From: an uncultured Gemmatimonadaceae bacterium
Lineage (GTDB): Bacteria > Gemmatimonadota > Gemmatimonadetes > Gemmatimonadales > Gemmatimonadaceae
DNA: 64,000 nt
Reading direction: 5' to 3'
Assembly: GCA_963761305.1 (NCBI GenBank)
Contig: CAVXGK010000001.1
Coordinates: 1,632,001 to 1,696,000, forward strand
This document shows positions 48,300-56,279 of the stretch, piece by piece (position 1 is the first letter of the stretch; each line of letters begins with the position of its first letter). The notes below the pieces were generated by a model. That model searched no databases and was not told the DNA's origin. It saw only the letters and a program-made list of their open reading frames with translations. The position numbers and the translations under genes were made by a program.

Positions 48300-49385
48300 C
48301 TACGCTTCCCAGCTGAGCGACGGCTTTCCGAAGTGCCCGTAATTGGTCGTCTGGCGGTAAATCGGGCGCCGCAGCGCCAGTCGTTCGATCATCGCCTCGG
48401 GACGATAGTCGAATGTGCGCACGAAGTCCGCGGCCGCACCGACATCGCCGGTACCGAACGTGTCCACGCGCACCGACACCGGCTCGGCGCGTCCGATCGC
48501 GTAGGCGACCTGTACCTCGGCGCGTGACGCGAGCTTGTTGCGCACGACCTGTCGCGCGACGTAGCGGCCGAAGTACGCGCCGCTGCGATCCACCTTCGAC
48601 GGATCCTTGCCGCTGAACGCGCCGCCGCCGTGGCGGCCCATGCCGCCGTATGAATCGACGATGATCTTCCGGCCCGTCACGCCGCAATCGGCCGACGGCC
48701 CGCCTTCGATGAATTGCCCCGTGGGATTGACGAGGATCTCGACGTGCGGCCCGAACCACGGGCCGAGTACTTCGGGGAGGAGACAGCTCGCGACGTAGTC
48801 GCGGATCTCGTCGTGCGTCGCGTCCTTGGTGTGCTGCGTGGAGACGAGCACCGTCTCGACACGCACCGGGCGATTGTGTTCGTAGCGAACACTGACCTGC
48901 GTCTTCGAGTCGGGTCGGAGCCACGCGCGTTCACCCTGCTTGCGCGCCGCGGCGAGTCGTTGGGAAAGCCGGTGCGCGAGCTGCACCGGCAAGGGCATGA
49001 GCTCGGGCGTCTCGTCGGTCGCGTAGCCGAACATGATTCCCTGATCGCCCGCGCCGCCCGTGTCGACGCCCATCGCGATGTCACCCGATTGCTTCGAGAT
49101 GAATTGCGTCACTCGTACGCCGTCGGCGTTGAACGCTTCGCGCGGATCGACGTAGCCGATCTCGCGGATCGCACCGCGTGCCACCGCCTCGTAGTCGACG
49201 TTCTGGTCCGACGTGATTTCCCCGGCCAGGACGACTTCGCCGCTCTTGCAGAGCACTTCGCAGGCGACGCGGCTTCTTGGATCACCCGCGAGATGCGCGT
49301 CGAGGATCGAGTCGGCGATGAAGTCGCAGACTTTGTCGGGATGCCCTTCGCTGACGGACTCGGACGTGAACGTGTAAGAGCTCAT
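48300..49385 (-). CDS. metK: S-adenosylmethionine synthetase
   Basis: FTSESVSEGHPDK, GAGDQG, TGRKIIVD, GGGAFSGKDPSKVDRS. Confidence 0.97.
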   Translation of the reverse strand: MSSYTFTSESVSEGHPDKVCDFIADSILDAHLAGDPRSRVACEVLCKSGEVVLAGEITSDQNVDYEAVARGAIREIGYVDPREAFNADGVRVTQFISKQSGDIAMGVDTGGAGDQGIMFGYATDETPELMPLPVQLAHRLSQRLAAARKQGERAWLRPDSKTQVSVRYEHNRPVRVETVLVSTQHTKDATHDEIRDYVASCLLPEVLGPWFGPHVEILVNPTGQFIEGGPSADCGVTGRKIIVDSYGGMGRHGGGAFSGKDPSKVDRSGAYFGRYVARQVVRNKLASRAEVQVAYAIGRAEPVSVRVDTFGTGDVGAAADFVRTFDYRPEAMIERLALRRPIYRQTTNYGHFGKPSLSWEA

Positions 49386-49423: not shown

Positions 49424-49454
49424 AAAAAAGGCCCCGACGATTTCGTCGTGGGCC
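49424..49454 (-). terminator. Intrinsic terminator in the metK leader (riboswitch expression platform)
   Basis: GGCCC-A-CGACG-AAAT-CGTCG-GGGCC followed by TTTTTT on the minus strand. Confidence 0.8.
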
Positions 49455-49467
49455 CGAAGGCATCCGA

Positions 49468-49535
49468 CGACTTAGACGGGTTTTTCCGGAGGCTTGCCGG
49501 CGCGCGGCCCGTCAAATCGGGGAAATCGCCGCGCG
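49468..49535 (-). ncRNA. SAM-II/SAM-V-like pseudoknot riboswitch aptamer
   Basis: P1 CGCGCGGC/GCCGCGCG, L1 GAUUU, P2 CGAUUUGACGG/CCGUC-U-AAGUCG with bulged U, A-rich L3; lies upstream of metK. Confidence 0.7.
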
Positions 49536-49540
49536 AGTGC

Positions 49541-49568
49541 AAGCTACCACGCGCGCCCCACGCGTCAA
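49541..49568 (-). promoter_or_regulatory. Sigma70-like promoter of metK
   Basis: TTGACG-N16-TAGCTT with extended TG; the predicted start coincides with P1 of the aptamer. Confidence 0.55.
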
Positions 49569-49610: not shown

Positions 49611-50705
49611 TCAGGGCACTGTGATCAGCCCGACGGCGCCGCCGAGCTCCTCGTCGTGCACGCTCGGCAGGTTCGACGGCGCGACCCATTCGCCGCCGTC
49701 GATGCGAATCGCGAGACGATGCGGACCCGGGGACACGACACGCTCGACGAACCAGCGGTCGTCGCCGCGCCCCAGCGTCACCGCCTCCCATCCGGTGAAG
49801 TCGCCCATCAGTTCGACGCGCTCCGCTTCACGCGATGCGCTGAGCGAGATTCGGGTCATCCCGGCGGCCGTTCGCGTGACGTCGACCCGCAACGCTCCGC
49901 CGGAGCGGCGGCTGAAGGACAGCGTCGCGTGCGGCTGCCACGCGACGCGCAGTCCCAGCGACGCGTACTGTGTGCTCGGCGTTCCGCGCACGACGTCGCT
50001 CAGCGCGTTTCCCGCCGCGAGCACGAGCGCGACCCTCGGCGCCACCCACAGTTCGGCGTCGGCGATCTGCCAGCCGCCGCTCTGCGCGCCGGCACGAAGG
50101 CCCGCGCTAGCGCCGACCGACACGCCGGCGGCCTCGTGGCGCCAACCGGCGCCGACGTCCGTGTAGGTGATGCTTCCGACGCGCGTGAGCAGCGCACTCG
50201 CGAGCAACCGCTCGTTGCCGGCAGACCACCATGCGTCGCCTGATCCACGGCCGAGCGTGAAGTTGACGTTGTCACCTGTGCGCGCGGTCGCACCCGTGCT
50301 TGCGCCGACCGCGACGCCGCCGAGCGCCCCGCCGAGTCGGAGTCGCGCGTTCACTTCGCCGCTGCCGGTGGTCGGCGCGCCCGTTTCCGTGAACCCGCTC
50401 AGCGCACCGCCGATTTCCCACCGCAATGGATTGAAGACCTGGCCCGTGACGCCGCCCAACGCCAACGCCTGTCCCGTCCATGCGCTGTTGGCCTGCAGCG
50501 ACGACAGCGCCGCGGCGTGAAACCAGGTTTGGTCACCGAATCCGTCGATCGTCGCGCCGAATGTTTGGGCGATCGATTCGGGGAGTCCGGTTTGTCGAAG
50601 GTGCGACAGCCCCGCGTCGGCCTTGACCTGCCACTGCGCGCGAGCTGAAGGAGGCGCCGCCAGGGCCGCGATTGTCGCCAGGAGCGCCGTCCGAACTCGC
50701 CGCAT
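49611..50705 (-). CDS. Exported beta-strand-rich protein with C-terminal CBM48/AMPK-beta-like glycogen-binding domain
   Basis: Signal peptide; amphipathic strands; AERVELMGDFTGW...PGPHRLAIRIDGGEW. Confidence 0.8.
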   Translation of the reverse strand: MRRVRTALLATIAALAAPPSARAQWQVKADAGLSHLRQTGLPESIAQTFGATIDGFGDQTWFHAAALSSLQANSAWTGQALALGGVTGQVFNPLRWEIGGALSGFTETGAPTTGSGEVNARLRLGGALGGVAVGASTGATARTGDNVNFTLGRGSGDAWWSAGNERLLASALLTRVGSITYTDVGAGWRHEAAGVSVGASAGLRAGAQSGGWQIADAELWVAPRVALVLAAGNALSDVVRGTPSTQYASLGLRVAWQPHATLSFSRRSGGALRVDVTRTAAGMTRISLSASREAERVELMGDFTGWEAVTLGRGDDRWFVERVVSPGPHRLAIRIDGGEWVAPSNLPSVHDEELGGAVGLITVP

Positions 50706-50713
50706 CCCTCAAA

Positions 50714-50740
50714 GTAGTGTCCGCGCGCGGTCCAGGTTCC
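50714..50740 (-). promoter_or_regulatory. Candidate ECF-sigma promoter
   Basis: GGAACC-N15-CACTAC directly ahead of the GAGGG-ATG of the CBM48 barrel-like gene. Confidence 0.35.
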
Positions 50741-50763
50741 GTAGCCGTTCGTCAGTCCGCGAG

Positions 50764-51423
50764 TTACGGTTTTCTCGGTGCCGAGGGCCCCGGTGCGCTG
50801 GCGGTCAAATCGCCGCTGCTTCCCGCGACGGGTGACAGGAGCGGCGTGAGTCCGTGGAATCGAATGTCGGCCGACTCTCCGCCCTTCGCTCCCTGCTGGA
50901 CGTCCGAGTTCACGTTGTTCCCGAGCGCGACGAGCTGCTCCGGCGTGGCGCCTCGCCGCATCAACTGAGTGACGATTTCGCCGGCTCGCTCGGGCGGCAC
51001 CTGATTCACGACCAACTGCGTGAGCACGCCAATCGGTACGGCGATCGCGCGGCCGGGCGCGGCCTGATGAACGCGGCTCAGCACCGCTTTCGGAATCTTG
51101 AATGAGAGCGCGACCTCGCCCGCCGTGATGTCCGCCGCGAGCGTGTCGGTCGCGATCGCGTCGCGTGCCGCATCCAACCGGTCGGCGACGGCCTGCGCCG
51201 TCTCGACGATGCGCGCCGGCAACGCGTGCACGACGAGCGCGAAGCGAATCTTCGAAACGATCGGGTCGATCGGCAGCCCCCGCGCGCGCGCGGCCCGAAC
51301 GATCTGCGTGAGTGCGGCGCTCGTCTCACGATCGGCGCCGGCGAATGTGAGCGAGTCCTGCGCGCGCACTGTTCGCGCCGCCAGAGCGAGAACGAACGCC
51401 GGGACGACGAGTCGCCCGTTCAC
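50764..51423 (-). CDS. Exported helical hypothetical protein
   Basis: Signal peptide (..VRA-Q), ARARGLPIDPI; GTGA coupling. Confidence 0.75.
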   Translation of the reverse strand: MNGRLVVPAFVLALAARTVRAQDSLTFAGADRETSAALTQIVRAARARGLPIDPIVSKIRFALVVHALPARIVETAQAVADRLDAARDAIATDTLAADITAGEVALSFKIPKAVLSRVHQAAPGRAIAVPIGVLTQLVVNQVPPERAGEIVTQLMRRGATPEQLVALGNNVNSDVQQGAKGGESADIRFHGLTPLLSPVAGSSGDLTASAPGPSAPRKP

Positions 51424-52043
51424 GGCCGCCCCACGATGACGACCGATCCCTCGACGCCCAGGTCTGGATCACGCGCCCGCGCGACACGGGCATCGGGATC
51501 GAGCGCGAAGACCGAGTCGTTCACCATGAATCCATACGTGTGCCGTCCCGGCGCGATCGGAATCGTCACCGACCACAGATCGCCGTCCGACGCGCGAACC
51601 ATCGGCGCGCTCGCCGCGTTCCATCCGTTGAAGTCGCCGACCAGCGACACGCGACGCGCCGACGCGCTCCGAAAAACGAACTGCTGCGGAATCGGCATCA
51701 CGTCCAGCGATCCGTTGACCGCCGGTTGTACCGGTACACTCGATGTCCCGGCACTCGACGCCGCCGTCCCACTCGGCGCCGTGCGCGTGAGCGGCCCGCG
51801 CACGATGAAGCCGACGAGCGCGGCTGCCGCGACGAGGCTGCCGAGCCCCGCGAGTCGCCACCGACGTACGGTCGAGCGTCGACCAGACTCCGCACCCATC
51901 AAAGGCTCGTCCGCTGCGGGCATCACGCGTTGCGCGGCCGCCGCCTCGACGACGCGGCGAATCGCGCCGACGTCCCCCGGCGGCACTTGCCGGAGCGTCT
52001 GCACCGCGCGGCGCAACACGTGGTCGCGTTCGACGTCGCTCAT
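51420..52043 (-). CDS. Putative anti-sigma factor: single TM + CBM48 (isoamylase early-set) domain
   Basis: ATGA overlap with the sigma gene; TM LAGLGSLVAAAALVGFIV; ARRVSLVGDFNGW...GRHTYGFMVN..DP. Confidence 0.8.
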   Translation of the reverse strand: MSDVERDHVLRRAVQTLRQVPPGDVGAIRRVVEAAAAQRVMPAADEPLMGAESGRRSTVRRWRLAGLGSLVAAAALVGFIVRGPLTRTAPSGTAASSAGTSSVPVQPAVNGSLDVMPIPQQFVFRSASARRVSLVGDFNGWNAASAPMVRASDGDLWSVTIPIAPGRHTYGFMVNDSVFALDPDARVARARDPDLGVEGSVVIVGRP

Positions 52044-52606
52044 TGGTGCTCCGGCGCGAGTCGCGCGCGCAGCGCGTCGCAGGCGCGCTTGACTCGCATC
52101 TTGAGCGCCGACTGGCCGACGCCCGTCATCGTCTCGATCTCCTCGTAGGAAAATCCTTCCACGTAGTGCAACAGAAAAATCTCGCGATTGTGCTCCGGCA
52201 ACTCGGCCAGCGCCCGGCGAACCGAGTCGTCCCACTCACGGTCGATCGACGCGCTCGCCGTCTCGGCCGCCGGCACGCGCGCCAGTGCTTCGTCGTCGGA
52301 CACGGCGTGCGACGCGCGCCGCTGCGACGCCGTGTTCGCCGTCCGGCAGCAGTTGCCGAGGATCTGAAAGAGCCACGACTCGAACCGCTGTCGTTCCTCG
52401 TACCGCGGCAGGGCGCGATACAGACGAACGAACGTCTCCTGCACCACGTCCTCCGCTTCGTCCGCGTCGTGCAGCATCGCCCGCGCGAACCGGAGGGAGC
52501 GCGGATAGTACGCCTCCACGATGCGCGTGAATGCGTCGATGTCGCCGAGTTTCGCGCGACTGATCGTCCGCGGATCGAGTCCGGCGGATTCTGCGGGATG
52601 CTGCAG
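52040..52606 (-). CDS. ECF RNA polymerase sigma factor (start uncertain)
   Basis: AEDVVQETF, FESWLFQI, LHYVEGFSYEEI, LKMRVKRA. Region 1.2-like ISRAKLGDIDAF lies upstream of the first GTG (52519). Confidence 0.88.
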   Translation of the reverse strand: MQHPAESAGLDPRTISRAKLGDIDAFTRIVEAYYPRSLRFARAMLHDADEAEDVVQETFVRLYRALPRYEERQRFESWLFQILGNCCRTANTASQRRASHAVSDDEALARVPAAETASASIDREWDDSVRRALAELPEHNREIFLLHYVEGFSYEEIETMTGVGQSALKMRVKRACDALRARLAPEHQ

Positions 52607-53822: not shown

Positions 53823-54764
53823 ATGGCTTCCCGGCTCAATGTTCTCGACCAGCTCTCGATTCTCGCCGACCCTACGCGGAGCCGGGCGCTGTTGCTGCTC
53901 GAGCGTCACGAGCTCACCGTCGGCGAGCTGTGCACCATTCTCCAGCTCCCCCAATCCACCGTAAGCCGCCACCTCAAGCTGCTCAGCGACGACGGCTGGC
54001 TCGTCGCGCGCGGCGAGGGCACCAGCCGGTTCTACCGCATGCTCGGCGACCGACTCGACGAATCGACCAGATCATTGTGGTCGGTCGTGCGCGCGCAGAT
54101 CTCGGCGAGTCCCGGGGCACGGCAGGACATGCGCCGCGCCGACGGCGTGCTCGCCAAGCGTCGCGACAAGGCAATCCTGTTTTTCCGGGATTCGTCGAAC
54201 CTGTGGGACGTGATGCGCACCGAGATGATCGGCGAACGCGCCGACTTGCTCGCTCTGCTCCACCTCCTCGACGACAGCTGGGTCGTCGGCGACCTCGGCT
54301 GCGGCTCGGGCCACATCGCCGAGGCGTTGGCGCCGTGCGTGAAGAAGGTCGTCGCCGTCGACGAGTCGGGTCCGATGCTCGAGGCCGCGCGCAAGCGTCT
54401 CGCATCGCACGACAACGTGGAGCTCCGCGTCGGCACCATCGAGTCGCTGCCGATCGATGATGGCGCGCTCGACGCGGCGATTCTCTTTCTCGTCGCGCAC
54501 TTCGTCACCGACCCGTCGCGAGCGATGGCCGAGGTGCGCCGCGTGCTCCGCCCCGGCGGACGGCTGCTCATCGTGGATCTGATGTCGCACGACCGGGTGG
54601 ACTACGTCGTCCAGCTCGGGCACGTCTGGCAGGGATTCGACGGACCACAGGTGATCTCGTGGCTGGAAGCGGCGGGGTTCGGGGCGTGCCGCTATCAACC
54701 GCTCCCCGCCGCGCCGGAAGCGAAAGGGCCGACGCTGTTCGTGGCCAGCGGCCGCAAGCAATGA
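53823..54764 (+). CDS. sahR: ArsR-family HTH + SAM-binding methyltransferase-fold regulator (SahR-like)
   Basis: LADPTR...ELTVGELC..LPQSTVSRHLKLL; GDLGCGSG; RVLRPGGRL; co-transcribed position with ahcY. Confidence 0.85.
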   Translation: MASRLNVLDQLSILADPTRSRALLLLERHELTVGELCTILQLPQSTVSRHLKLLSDDGWLVARGEGTSRFYRMLGDRLDESTRSLWSVVRAQISASPGARQDMRRADGVLAKRRDKAILFFRDSSNLWDVMRTEMIGERADLLALLHLLDDSWVVGDLGCGSGHIAEALAPCVKKVVAVDESGPMLEAARKRLASHDNVELRVGTIESLPIDDGALDAAILFLVAHFVTDPSRAMAEVRRVLRPGGRLLIVDLMSHDRVDYVVQLGHVWQGFDGPQVISWLEAAGFGACRYQPLPAAPEAKGPTLFVASGRKQ

Positions 54765-54794
54765 CAATGACACATCACTCTCGAGGATTCTGAA

Positions 54795-56279
<1,485 letters not shown>

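Follow-up and report, generated by a model that had tools for sequence, protein, structure and literature searches.

A conserved, uncatalogued SAM-II relative wired to a transcription terminator in a metK leader of the Gemmatimonadaceae

The metK leader at positions 49424..49568 (minus strand) of the window, the whole 64,000-nt stretch of DNA from an uncultured Gemmatimonadaceae bacterium that was analysed, is a conserved, uncatalogued SAM-II relative wired to a transcription terminator. Judging from the sequence comparisons below, we consider it probable that this leader is a SAM-sensing transcriptional OFF riboswitch with the SAM-II fold and a pocket remodelled at its methionine end. The adenine that contacts the methionine moiety (A47) is lost, so the element is probably still OFF when SAM is plentiful and may bind differently or more weakly.

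In both members of the class with solved structures, SAM is hydrogen-bonded by two bases, one of which is A47, and inosine, with its G-like edge, at the equivalent A50 of SAM-V causes severe loss of binding (PMC6061858). A natural family that lacks A47 and still precedes metK in two phyla would mean another grip on the methionine tail, low-affinity tuning or a new ligand, and each option is accessible with a 70-nt RNA and a canonical control from the same genome. For SAM control in Gemmatimonadota and Vicinamibacteria, which are abundant and for the most part uncultured, the element closes a gap in annotation. Should the variant turn out to be a plain SAM binder, it would be one more type within a known class and no new class.

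Leader architecture and expression platform

All elements named by the original prediction were located on the minus strand, with pairs checked by coordinate. SAM-II numbering was mapped onto the leader from passages of PMC3764141. The features are:

49563..49568, minus strand: -35-like hexamer, by sequence; TTGAC kept in homologues
49541..49546, minus strand: -10-like hexamer (TAnnnT, with TG-n before it), by sequence; probable start site at 49535-49534
49528..49535, minus strand: P1 5' strand, 8 pairs, of which 5/8 vary on both sides across 135 sequences
49520..49527, minus strand: L1 third strand (49527-49523 = G8 A9 U10 U11 U12) and C13/L2 (49522-49520)
49509..49519, minus strand: P2 5' strand (U19 49516, U20 49515, U21 49514, G22 49513, A23 49512)
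49501..49508, minus strand: P1 3' strand, pairing by coordinate and covariation
49480..49500, minus strand: L3, a P3 hairpin plus A-tract, freely variable in length and sequence among homologues
49468..49479, minus strand: P2 3' strand (U42 49476, C43 49475, bulged U44 49474, A45 49473, A46 49472, G47 49471)
49445..49471, minus strand: antiterminator, 49471-49464 with 49452-49445, mutually exclusive with upper P2 and the terminator
49424..49455, minus strand: intrinsic terminator, hairpin 49454-49430 (about -20 kcal/mol) and six U (49429-49424)
48300..49385, minus strand: metK, SAM synthetase of 361 aa (TIGR01034, 476 bits against a cut-off of 309.4); a second metK of its genome

P1 comprises 8/8 Watson-Crick pairs (49535-49528 with 49508-49501) and P2 comprises 11 pairs including one U-G (49519-49509 with 49479-49468), with U49474 bulged before AA. 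Together with the GAUUU loop, the 4-bp P3 (49500-49486) and the A-tract (49485-49481), they give the anticipated pseudoknot; the A-tract shows no conservation across homologues. The downstream gene is metK, as predicted, and its start codon lies 83 nt past the aptamer with the terminator in between. The element thus sits, like SAM-II, in the 5' UTR of a methionine/SAM gene with an expression platform.

A promoter aimed at P1 is upheld by homologues, despite a consensus promoter scan that gave 0 sites at the leader (the -10 agrees at 3/6 positions). The -35-like and -10-like hexamers are spaced by 16 nt, and the latter ends five bases before P1. TTGAC occurs 35-50 nt before L1 in 106/150 homologous elements versus 0/590 control windows; the full -35/-10 pattern is present in 57/150, and 41 of these 57 end 13-14 nt before L1.

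The platform is likewise conserved. A terminator-like hairpin follows in 136/150 homologues (a count made without shuffle control), and the P2 3' strand pairs with the terminator 5' arm in 124/150. At least five contiguous antiterminator pairs can form in 143/150 homologues versus 40% of shuffles. Of the three free positions of the antiterminator, position 51 alone covaries above shuffles (132/146 versus 119, 0/2000), and positions 52 and 53 do not. For this leader, the antiterminator reaches -11.2 kcal/mol versus -6.9 kcal/mol with the P2 strand held, and upper P2 contributes about 4.8 kcal/mol. These computed energies would put the switch near balance with polymerase on the terminator 5' arm. 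The finished terminator (-19.5 to -20.5 kcal/mol) beats the antiterminator (-12.4 kcal/mol) by about 7-8 kcal/mol, so control must be kinetic; at equilibrium the terminator is the winning fold without ligand.

That equilibrium fold would also suit a ligand-independent or protein-controlled attenuator, in which a degenerate SAM-II sets a fixed read-through or serves as protein target. The loss of the key contact, copies in front of unrelated ORFs and a SahR-like regulator with ahcY 4 kb away fit this as well. We nevertheless regard it as very unlikely: unpaired U10-U12 and bulged U44, useless without a ligand, are near-invariant, and the few copies losing those bases (the second match of L369, and L372) look decayed.

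The SAM-sensing OFF switch that we favour would operate as follows. Transcription would start at P1, and P1, P3 and P2, whose pairs are shown by covariation, would fold while emerging. At low SAM, the weak upper P2 would be invaded by the terminator 5' arm to form the antiterminator, the terminator could then not nucleate and metK would be transcribed. With SAM present, and by analogy with the solved SAM-II and SAM-V structures, its adenine would pair with bulged U44 and its sulfonium would sit at the U11-A45-U21 triple; upper P2 would be locked, invasion blocked and the terminator formed. The loss of A47 leaves a Y19-G47 pair, and the methionine tail would then be unbound or read by another edge. 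SAM affinity is likely lower, and metK would then be shut only at high SAM. The OFF logic originally predicted from the wiring is supported by the conservation of the platform and by these energies.

Conservation, distribution and covariation

Conservation in related metK leaders, which the original prediction required, was found. The core is present in 37/42 leaders picked purely by MetK similarity (L001-L042); the five lacking it are a sister form (L033) plus four leaders that are unrelated, of which one is short. Among 68 more distant metK leaders there is just one AT-rich loose match. A pattern scan returned at least 120 loci, the 80 titled ones all from Gemmatimonadota or Acidobacteriota, and metK lies downstream in 90/120 of the matches listed. 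A looser pattern matched 41/401 genomes of the host's phylum (one of the 41 marked unpublished) versus 8 reversed-pattern control matches. In the phylum of an Acidobacteriota genome it matched 14/251 genomes beside 10 control matches, so part of the Acidobacteriota matches is chance. Model R1 found 15/151, with one strong copy in the host genome. The element is patchy in distribution and not universal.

A loose scan for patterns other than G47 gave at least 120 loci that are chance matches; R1 applied to 80 of these and 11 others yielded nothing convincing (1 match, 17.5 bits). Viral contigs gave 11 pattern matches, none with P1 and all unrelated. Apparently decayed copies, with pocket bases or terminator lost, were seen at L369:1651-1722, L372:1501-1577 and L479; an intact copy lies 940 nt away from one of these.

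Across 135 distinct aptamers, which are kin and for which the search pattern had fixed most P2 letters of alignment A1, 96.3% of cells are paired and the covariation score is 0.180 versus 0.134 for shuffled alignments, with 0/500 reaching it. Pair 24-41 occurs in this set as U-A (68), C-G (57) and U-G (9). A cleaner set was assembled in which neither upper P2 nor position 47 was constrained: 52 loci were fetched and 47 kept, five having fewer than 6/8 P1 pairs (L419, L483, L484, L485 and L489). Four further matches and the one from the unpublished genome stand outside this set. All 44 G47 matches in it form the pairs 19-47, 18-48, 17-49, 23-42 and 24-41; compensatory exchanges are seen at 17-49 (41 G-C, 3 A-U), 23-42 (39 A-U, 5 G-C) and 24-41 (25 C-G, 19 U-A). 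The folding energy of the leader is not above chance (z -1.2, from a program that cannot fold pseudoknots), and the case for the element thus rests on conservation and covariation.

Binding pocket, gene context and ligand

In SAM-II, the bulged U44 pairs with the adenine of SAM, and U11 and U21 lie opposite the sulfonium (PMC6061858, PMC3764141 and PMC3303485); the amino and carboxyl groups are contacted by A47, or by A50 in SAM-V (PMC6061858, PMC3764141). A47, C23 and G42 are termed completely conserved in a passage of PMC3764141. The variant retains the adenine and sulfonium contacts U10, U11, U21, U44 (here U49474) and A45, within U10-U12, U20-G22 and C43-A46. The letters of the triplex and sulfonium site (U10-U11-U12; U21-A45, U20-A46, G22-C43) agree by sequence, several of them having been fixed by the search patterns and being free in the 37 protein-chosen leaders only to a limited extent. 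Position 47 is G in 37/37 protein-chosen leaders with the core, opposite U19 in 31 and C19 in six, and in 44/47 position-free matches. The C23-G42 pair of the G8 triple is replaced by A-U in 39/44 matches, as in this leader, and by G-C in 5/44. Hence, the SAM-II/SAM-V-type core proposed originally stood as a covariation-supported fold and failed as an intact SAM-binding core.

Position 13 is a pyrimidine in 147/150 homologues, so a further pyrimidine triple would be possible. Hypothetically, a Y13-G47-Y19 triple may take over the methionine tail, its amino groups holding the carboxylate. Against it stand a purine at 13 in three kept G47 matches, U19 in a third of members, and C13 in some canonical aptamers too.

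In the same family, both A47 and C23-G42 are retained by canonical RF00521 aptamers in 29/29 parsed cases (30 loci; 17 as C19/A47/G48), a count that is partly circular as the set was chosen by RF00521 score. A sister form with the long lower P2 of the variant and C19/A47/G48 was found in 14/23 loci of a directed scan. Removing A47 from the sister form gives the variant, so that, judged by these alignments, A47 may as likely have been lost by deletion as by substitution. Sister-form loci are L452, L456-L459, L461-L465, L467, L468, L472, L474 and L480-L482. The form precedes metK in Longimicrobium and other ORFs without known function elsewhere.

Gene context was assigned for 163 distinct G47 elements. 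Of these, 109 precede metK. Another 40 stand in tandem ahead of a SAM-II- or SAM-I-type aptamer, these partners being identified by pattern: 19 before a SAM-II-type aptamer and metY (Pfam), four before a SAM-II-type aptamer with some other gene, metX-like in one case, and 17 before a SAM-I-like aptamer. Six elements precede a 1-Cys peroxiredoxin and eight precede other genes. RF00521 exceeds its cut-off downstream in 7/20 non-metK loci. RF00162 exceeds it at L478 and stays below it, at 36-43 bits, at L120, L173, L486 and L421. Tandems of SAM aptamers for the same ligand with a terminator-linked SAM-II first are already described in part of PMC9481103. It counts against SAM sensing that 31/163 elements precede genes without a shown SAM link (17 behind SAM-I-like aptamers, 6 peroxiredoxins, 8 others) and that the ORFs behind two SAM-II tandems are unknown. 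The inosine effect in SAM-V, the complete conservation stated for A47 in SAM-II and the lack of an Rfam SAM match weigh in the same direction.

An alternative keeps the fold and the OFF wiring and changes the ligand to a SAM relative differing at the amino-acid end, such as decarboxylated SAM, another adenosyl-sulfonium or methylthioadenosine. The loss of A47 would then have rebuilt the amino-acid end of the pocket as the Y13-G47-Y19 triple in place of an A19/C19-A47 site, and tandems with canonical SAM-II or SAM-I, also where they precede unknown genes, would work as natural gates with two inputs. The sole direct contact lost is indeed the one reading the amino-acid end, G47 is fixed across two phyla while the same genomes hold canonical A47 aptamers, and SAM-I variants with altered ligand are known (PMC10853860, in part). 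We consider this change of ligand, and with it the rebuilt triple, unlikely: the gene context concerns SAM supply (metK, metY-metX) with no polyamine or salvage gene downstream, the uridines reading the sulfonium are retained, and no SAM decarboxylase family match was obtained in the 93%-complete host genome, though 3/4 other genomes do pass the cut-off. Gene context, tandems and the missing SAM decarboxylase match point to SAM as the probable ligand.

The SAM-I-like tandem loci are L118, L172, L206, L221, L224, L225, L362, L366, L371, L420, L421, L428, L475, L478 and L486-L488 (and L120). Their second aptamer is GC-rich, lies 40-200 nt past the terminator of the variant and mostly scores below the RF00162 cut-off, with a P3 bulge of AA (8), AGA (4), AUA (2), A (2) or ACA (1). 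The ORFs behind them are unrelated and mostly family-less, one being an SNF2 helicase. For ORFs downstream of SAM-I-type and A47 tandems, 11/15 have no match in Pfam and 11/13 none in PHROGs, which leaves a phage or defence connection unsupported. Perhaps these tandems mark SAM-controlled genes without known function, possibly on mobile DNA; a connection to SAM depletion by phages would be a guess. The peroxiredoxin loci are L139, L177, L194, L233, L234 and L411:210-842; 1-Cys peroxiredoxins are induced by sulfur starvation in Pseudomonas. An OsmC-like ORF was seen by eye at L189.

The other metK copy of the host genome (G000:C2:1186578-1187639) is 57% identical, operon-internal and without leader, and the closest named relatives of the MetK studied here are Gemmatimonadaceae (75%). 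In 5/5 Acidobacteriota genomes tested, the element precedes the sole metK found. In one genome, the only metK match (G492:C16:44179-45270) contains one TAG. A quick tree covered 107 MetK rows, a subset of the genus loci, with one row removed because of a stop. One of its branches (SH-aLRT 100) unites 29 G47, two A47 and four element-free rows; two more G47 elements belong to the neighbouring Verrucomicrobia-type branch, and the housekeeping copy lies elsewhere. A same-clade metK leader in an Acidobacteriaceae genome (L036:1238-1500) resembles a fluoride riboswitch by its motif.

Near metK, an ArsR-type HTH plus methyltransferase ORF (SahR-like) followed by ahcY lies 4 kb away at 53823-56279 (plus strand); SahR regulons in Proteobacteria include metK (PMC4239095, in part). 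The upstream cluster at 49611-52519 (minus strand) contains an ECF-sigma-like ORF (by eye) and other ORFs, one of which weakly matches the N-terminal domain of glycogen branching enzymes.

Comparison with known SAM riboswitches

The expected absence from the Rfam models of SAM-II, SAM-II long loop and SAM-V was confirmed. Rfam at gathering cut-off matched nothing in the window, and no SAM family appeared around the leader even at E 10. RF00521 (SAM-II; 36 bits) matched seven places in the host genome, this leader not among them. RF01726 (SAM-II long loop; 44 bits) had 0 matches in the host genome while its control genome passed, and RF01767 (SAM-III) had 0 matches. RF01826 (SAM-V; 41 bits) had 0 matches in the host genome, and its positive-control search in five genomes also gave none; the sequence comparison therefore carries more weight for the SAM-V negative than this model does. 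Literature searches on SAM-II or riboswitches in Gemmatimonad, Acidobacteria and metK yielded no paper describing the variant, though it could be listed in a supplementary motif table of an ncRNA survey.

Two claims of novelty were not sustained. Most SAM-II switches are transcriptional according to a passage of PMC6061858, and canonical SAM-II exceeds the Rfam cut-off in 72/81 genomes of the Gemmatimonadaceae family (three of the 81 marked unpublished), so neither the mode of control nor the lineage is new. In the host genome, a canonical SAM-II with a terminator-like hairpin precedes a metH-like homocysteine methyltransferase gene (G000:C2:2538916-2538990; L111:1501-1575).

The leader might be an ordinary SAM-II that escapes Rfam just through its GC content and loop length; affinity and contacts would then be unchanged, with G47 substituting via its major-groove edge. 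McCown et al. [quoted passage not shown] This reading appears extremely improbable: in the same family, GC-rich canonical SAM-II aptamers retain A47 and C23-G42 (29/29, with the circularity given above) and score over the cut-off, and a G in a Y-G pair cannot offer the N6/N1 edge that A47 uses.

SAM-II long loop (RF01726) also precedes metK (L379, L380) and has variable loops; unlike the variant, its consensus, from Bacteroidetes, retains three A after the bulged U as well as C23-G42. SAM-V (RF01826; PDB 6FZ0) shares the core, a P3 hairpin directly after P1 and a P2 that runs into P1 without a break, but is translational, with a Shine-Dalgarno sequence at the aptamer 3' end, and needs A50, whereas the variant has G at that position and a terminator before the start codon. 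The A47-keeping sister form (Longimicrobiales and other Gemmatimonadota), for which Rfam gave no match in 6/6 loci scanned, has the same long lower P2 with purine23-pyrimidine42, the same upper helix end, a terminator and metK of the same clade; it differs in having A47 (C19, A47, G48) and G13. Compared with SAM-II (RF00521 SAM_alpha; PDB 2QWY), the variant has a G47-Y19 pair for A47, purine23-pyrimidine42 for C23-G42, a 5-bp lower P2 continuous with P1 and an uninterrupted 6-bp upper P2, and it lacks a conserved A-rich L3 and an Rfam score. With SAM-II it shares the H-type pseudoknot of P1 and P2, the L1 sequence G8-A9-U10-U11-U12, U20-U21-G22 paired with C43-(U44)-A45-A46, the terminator platform and the association with met/SAM genes.
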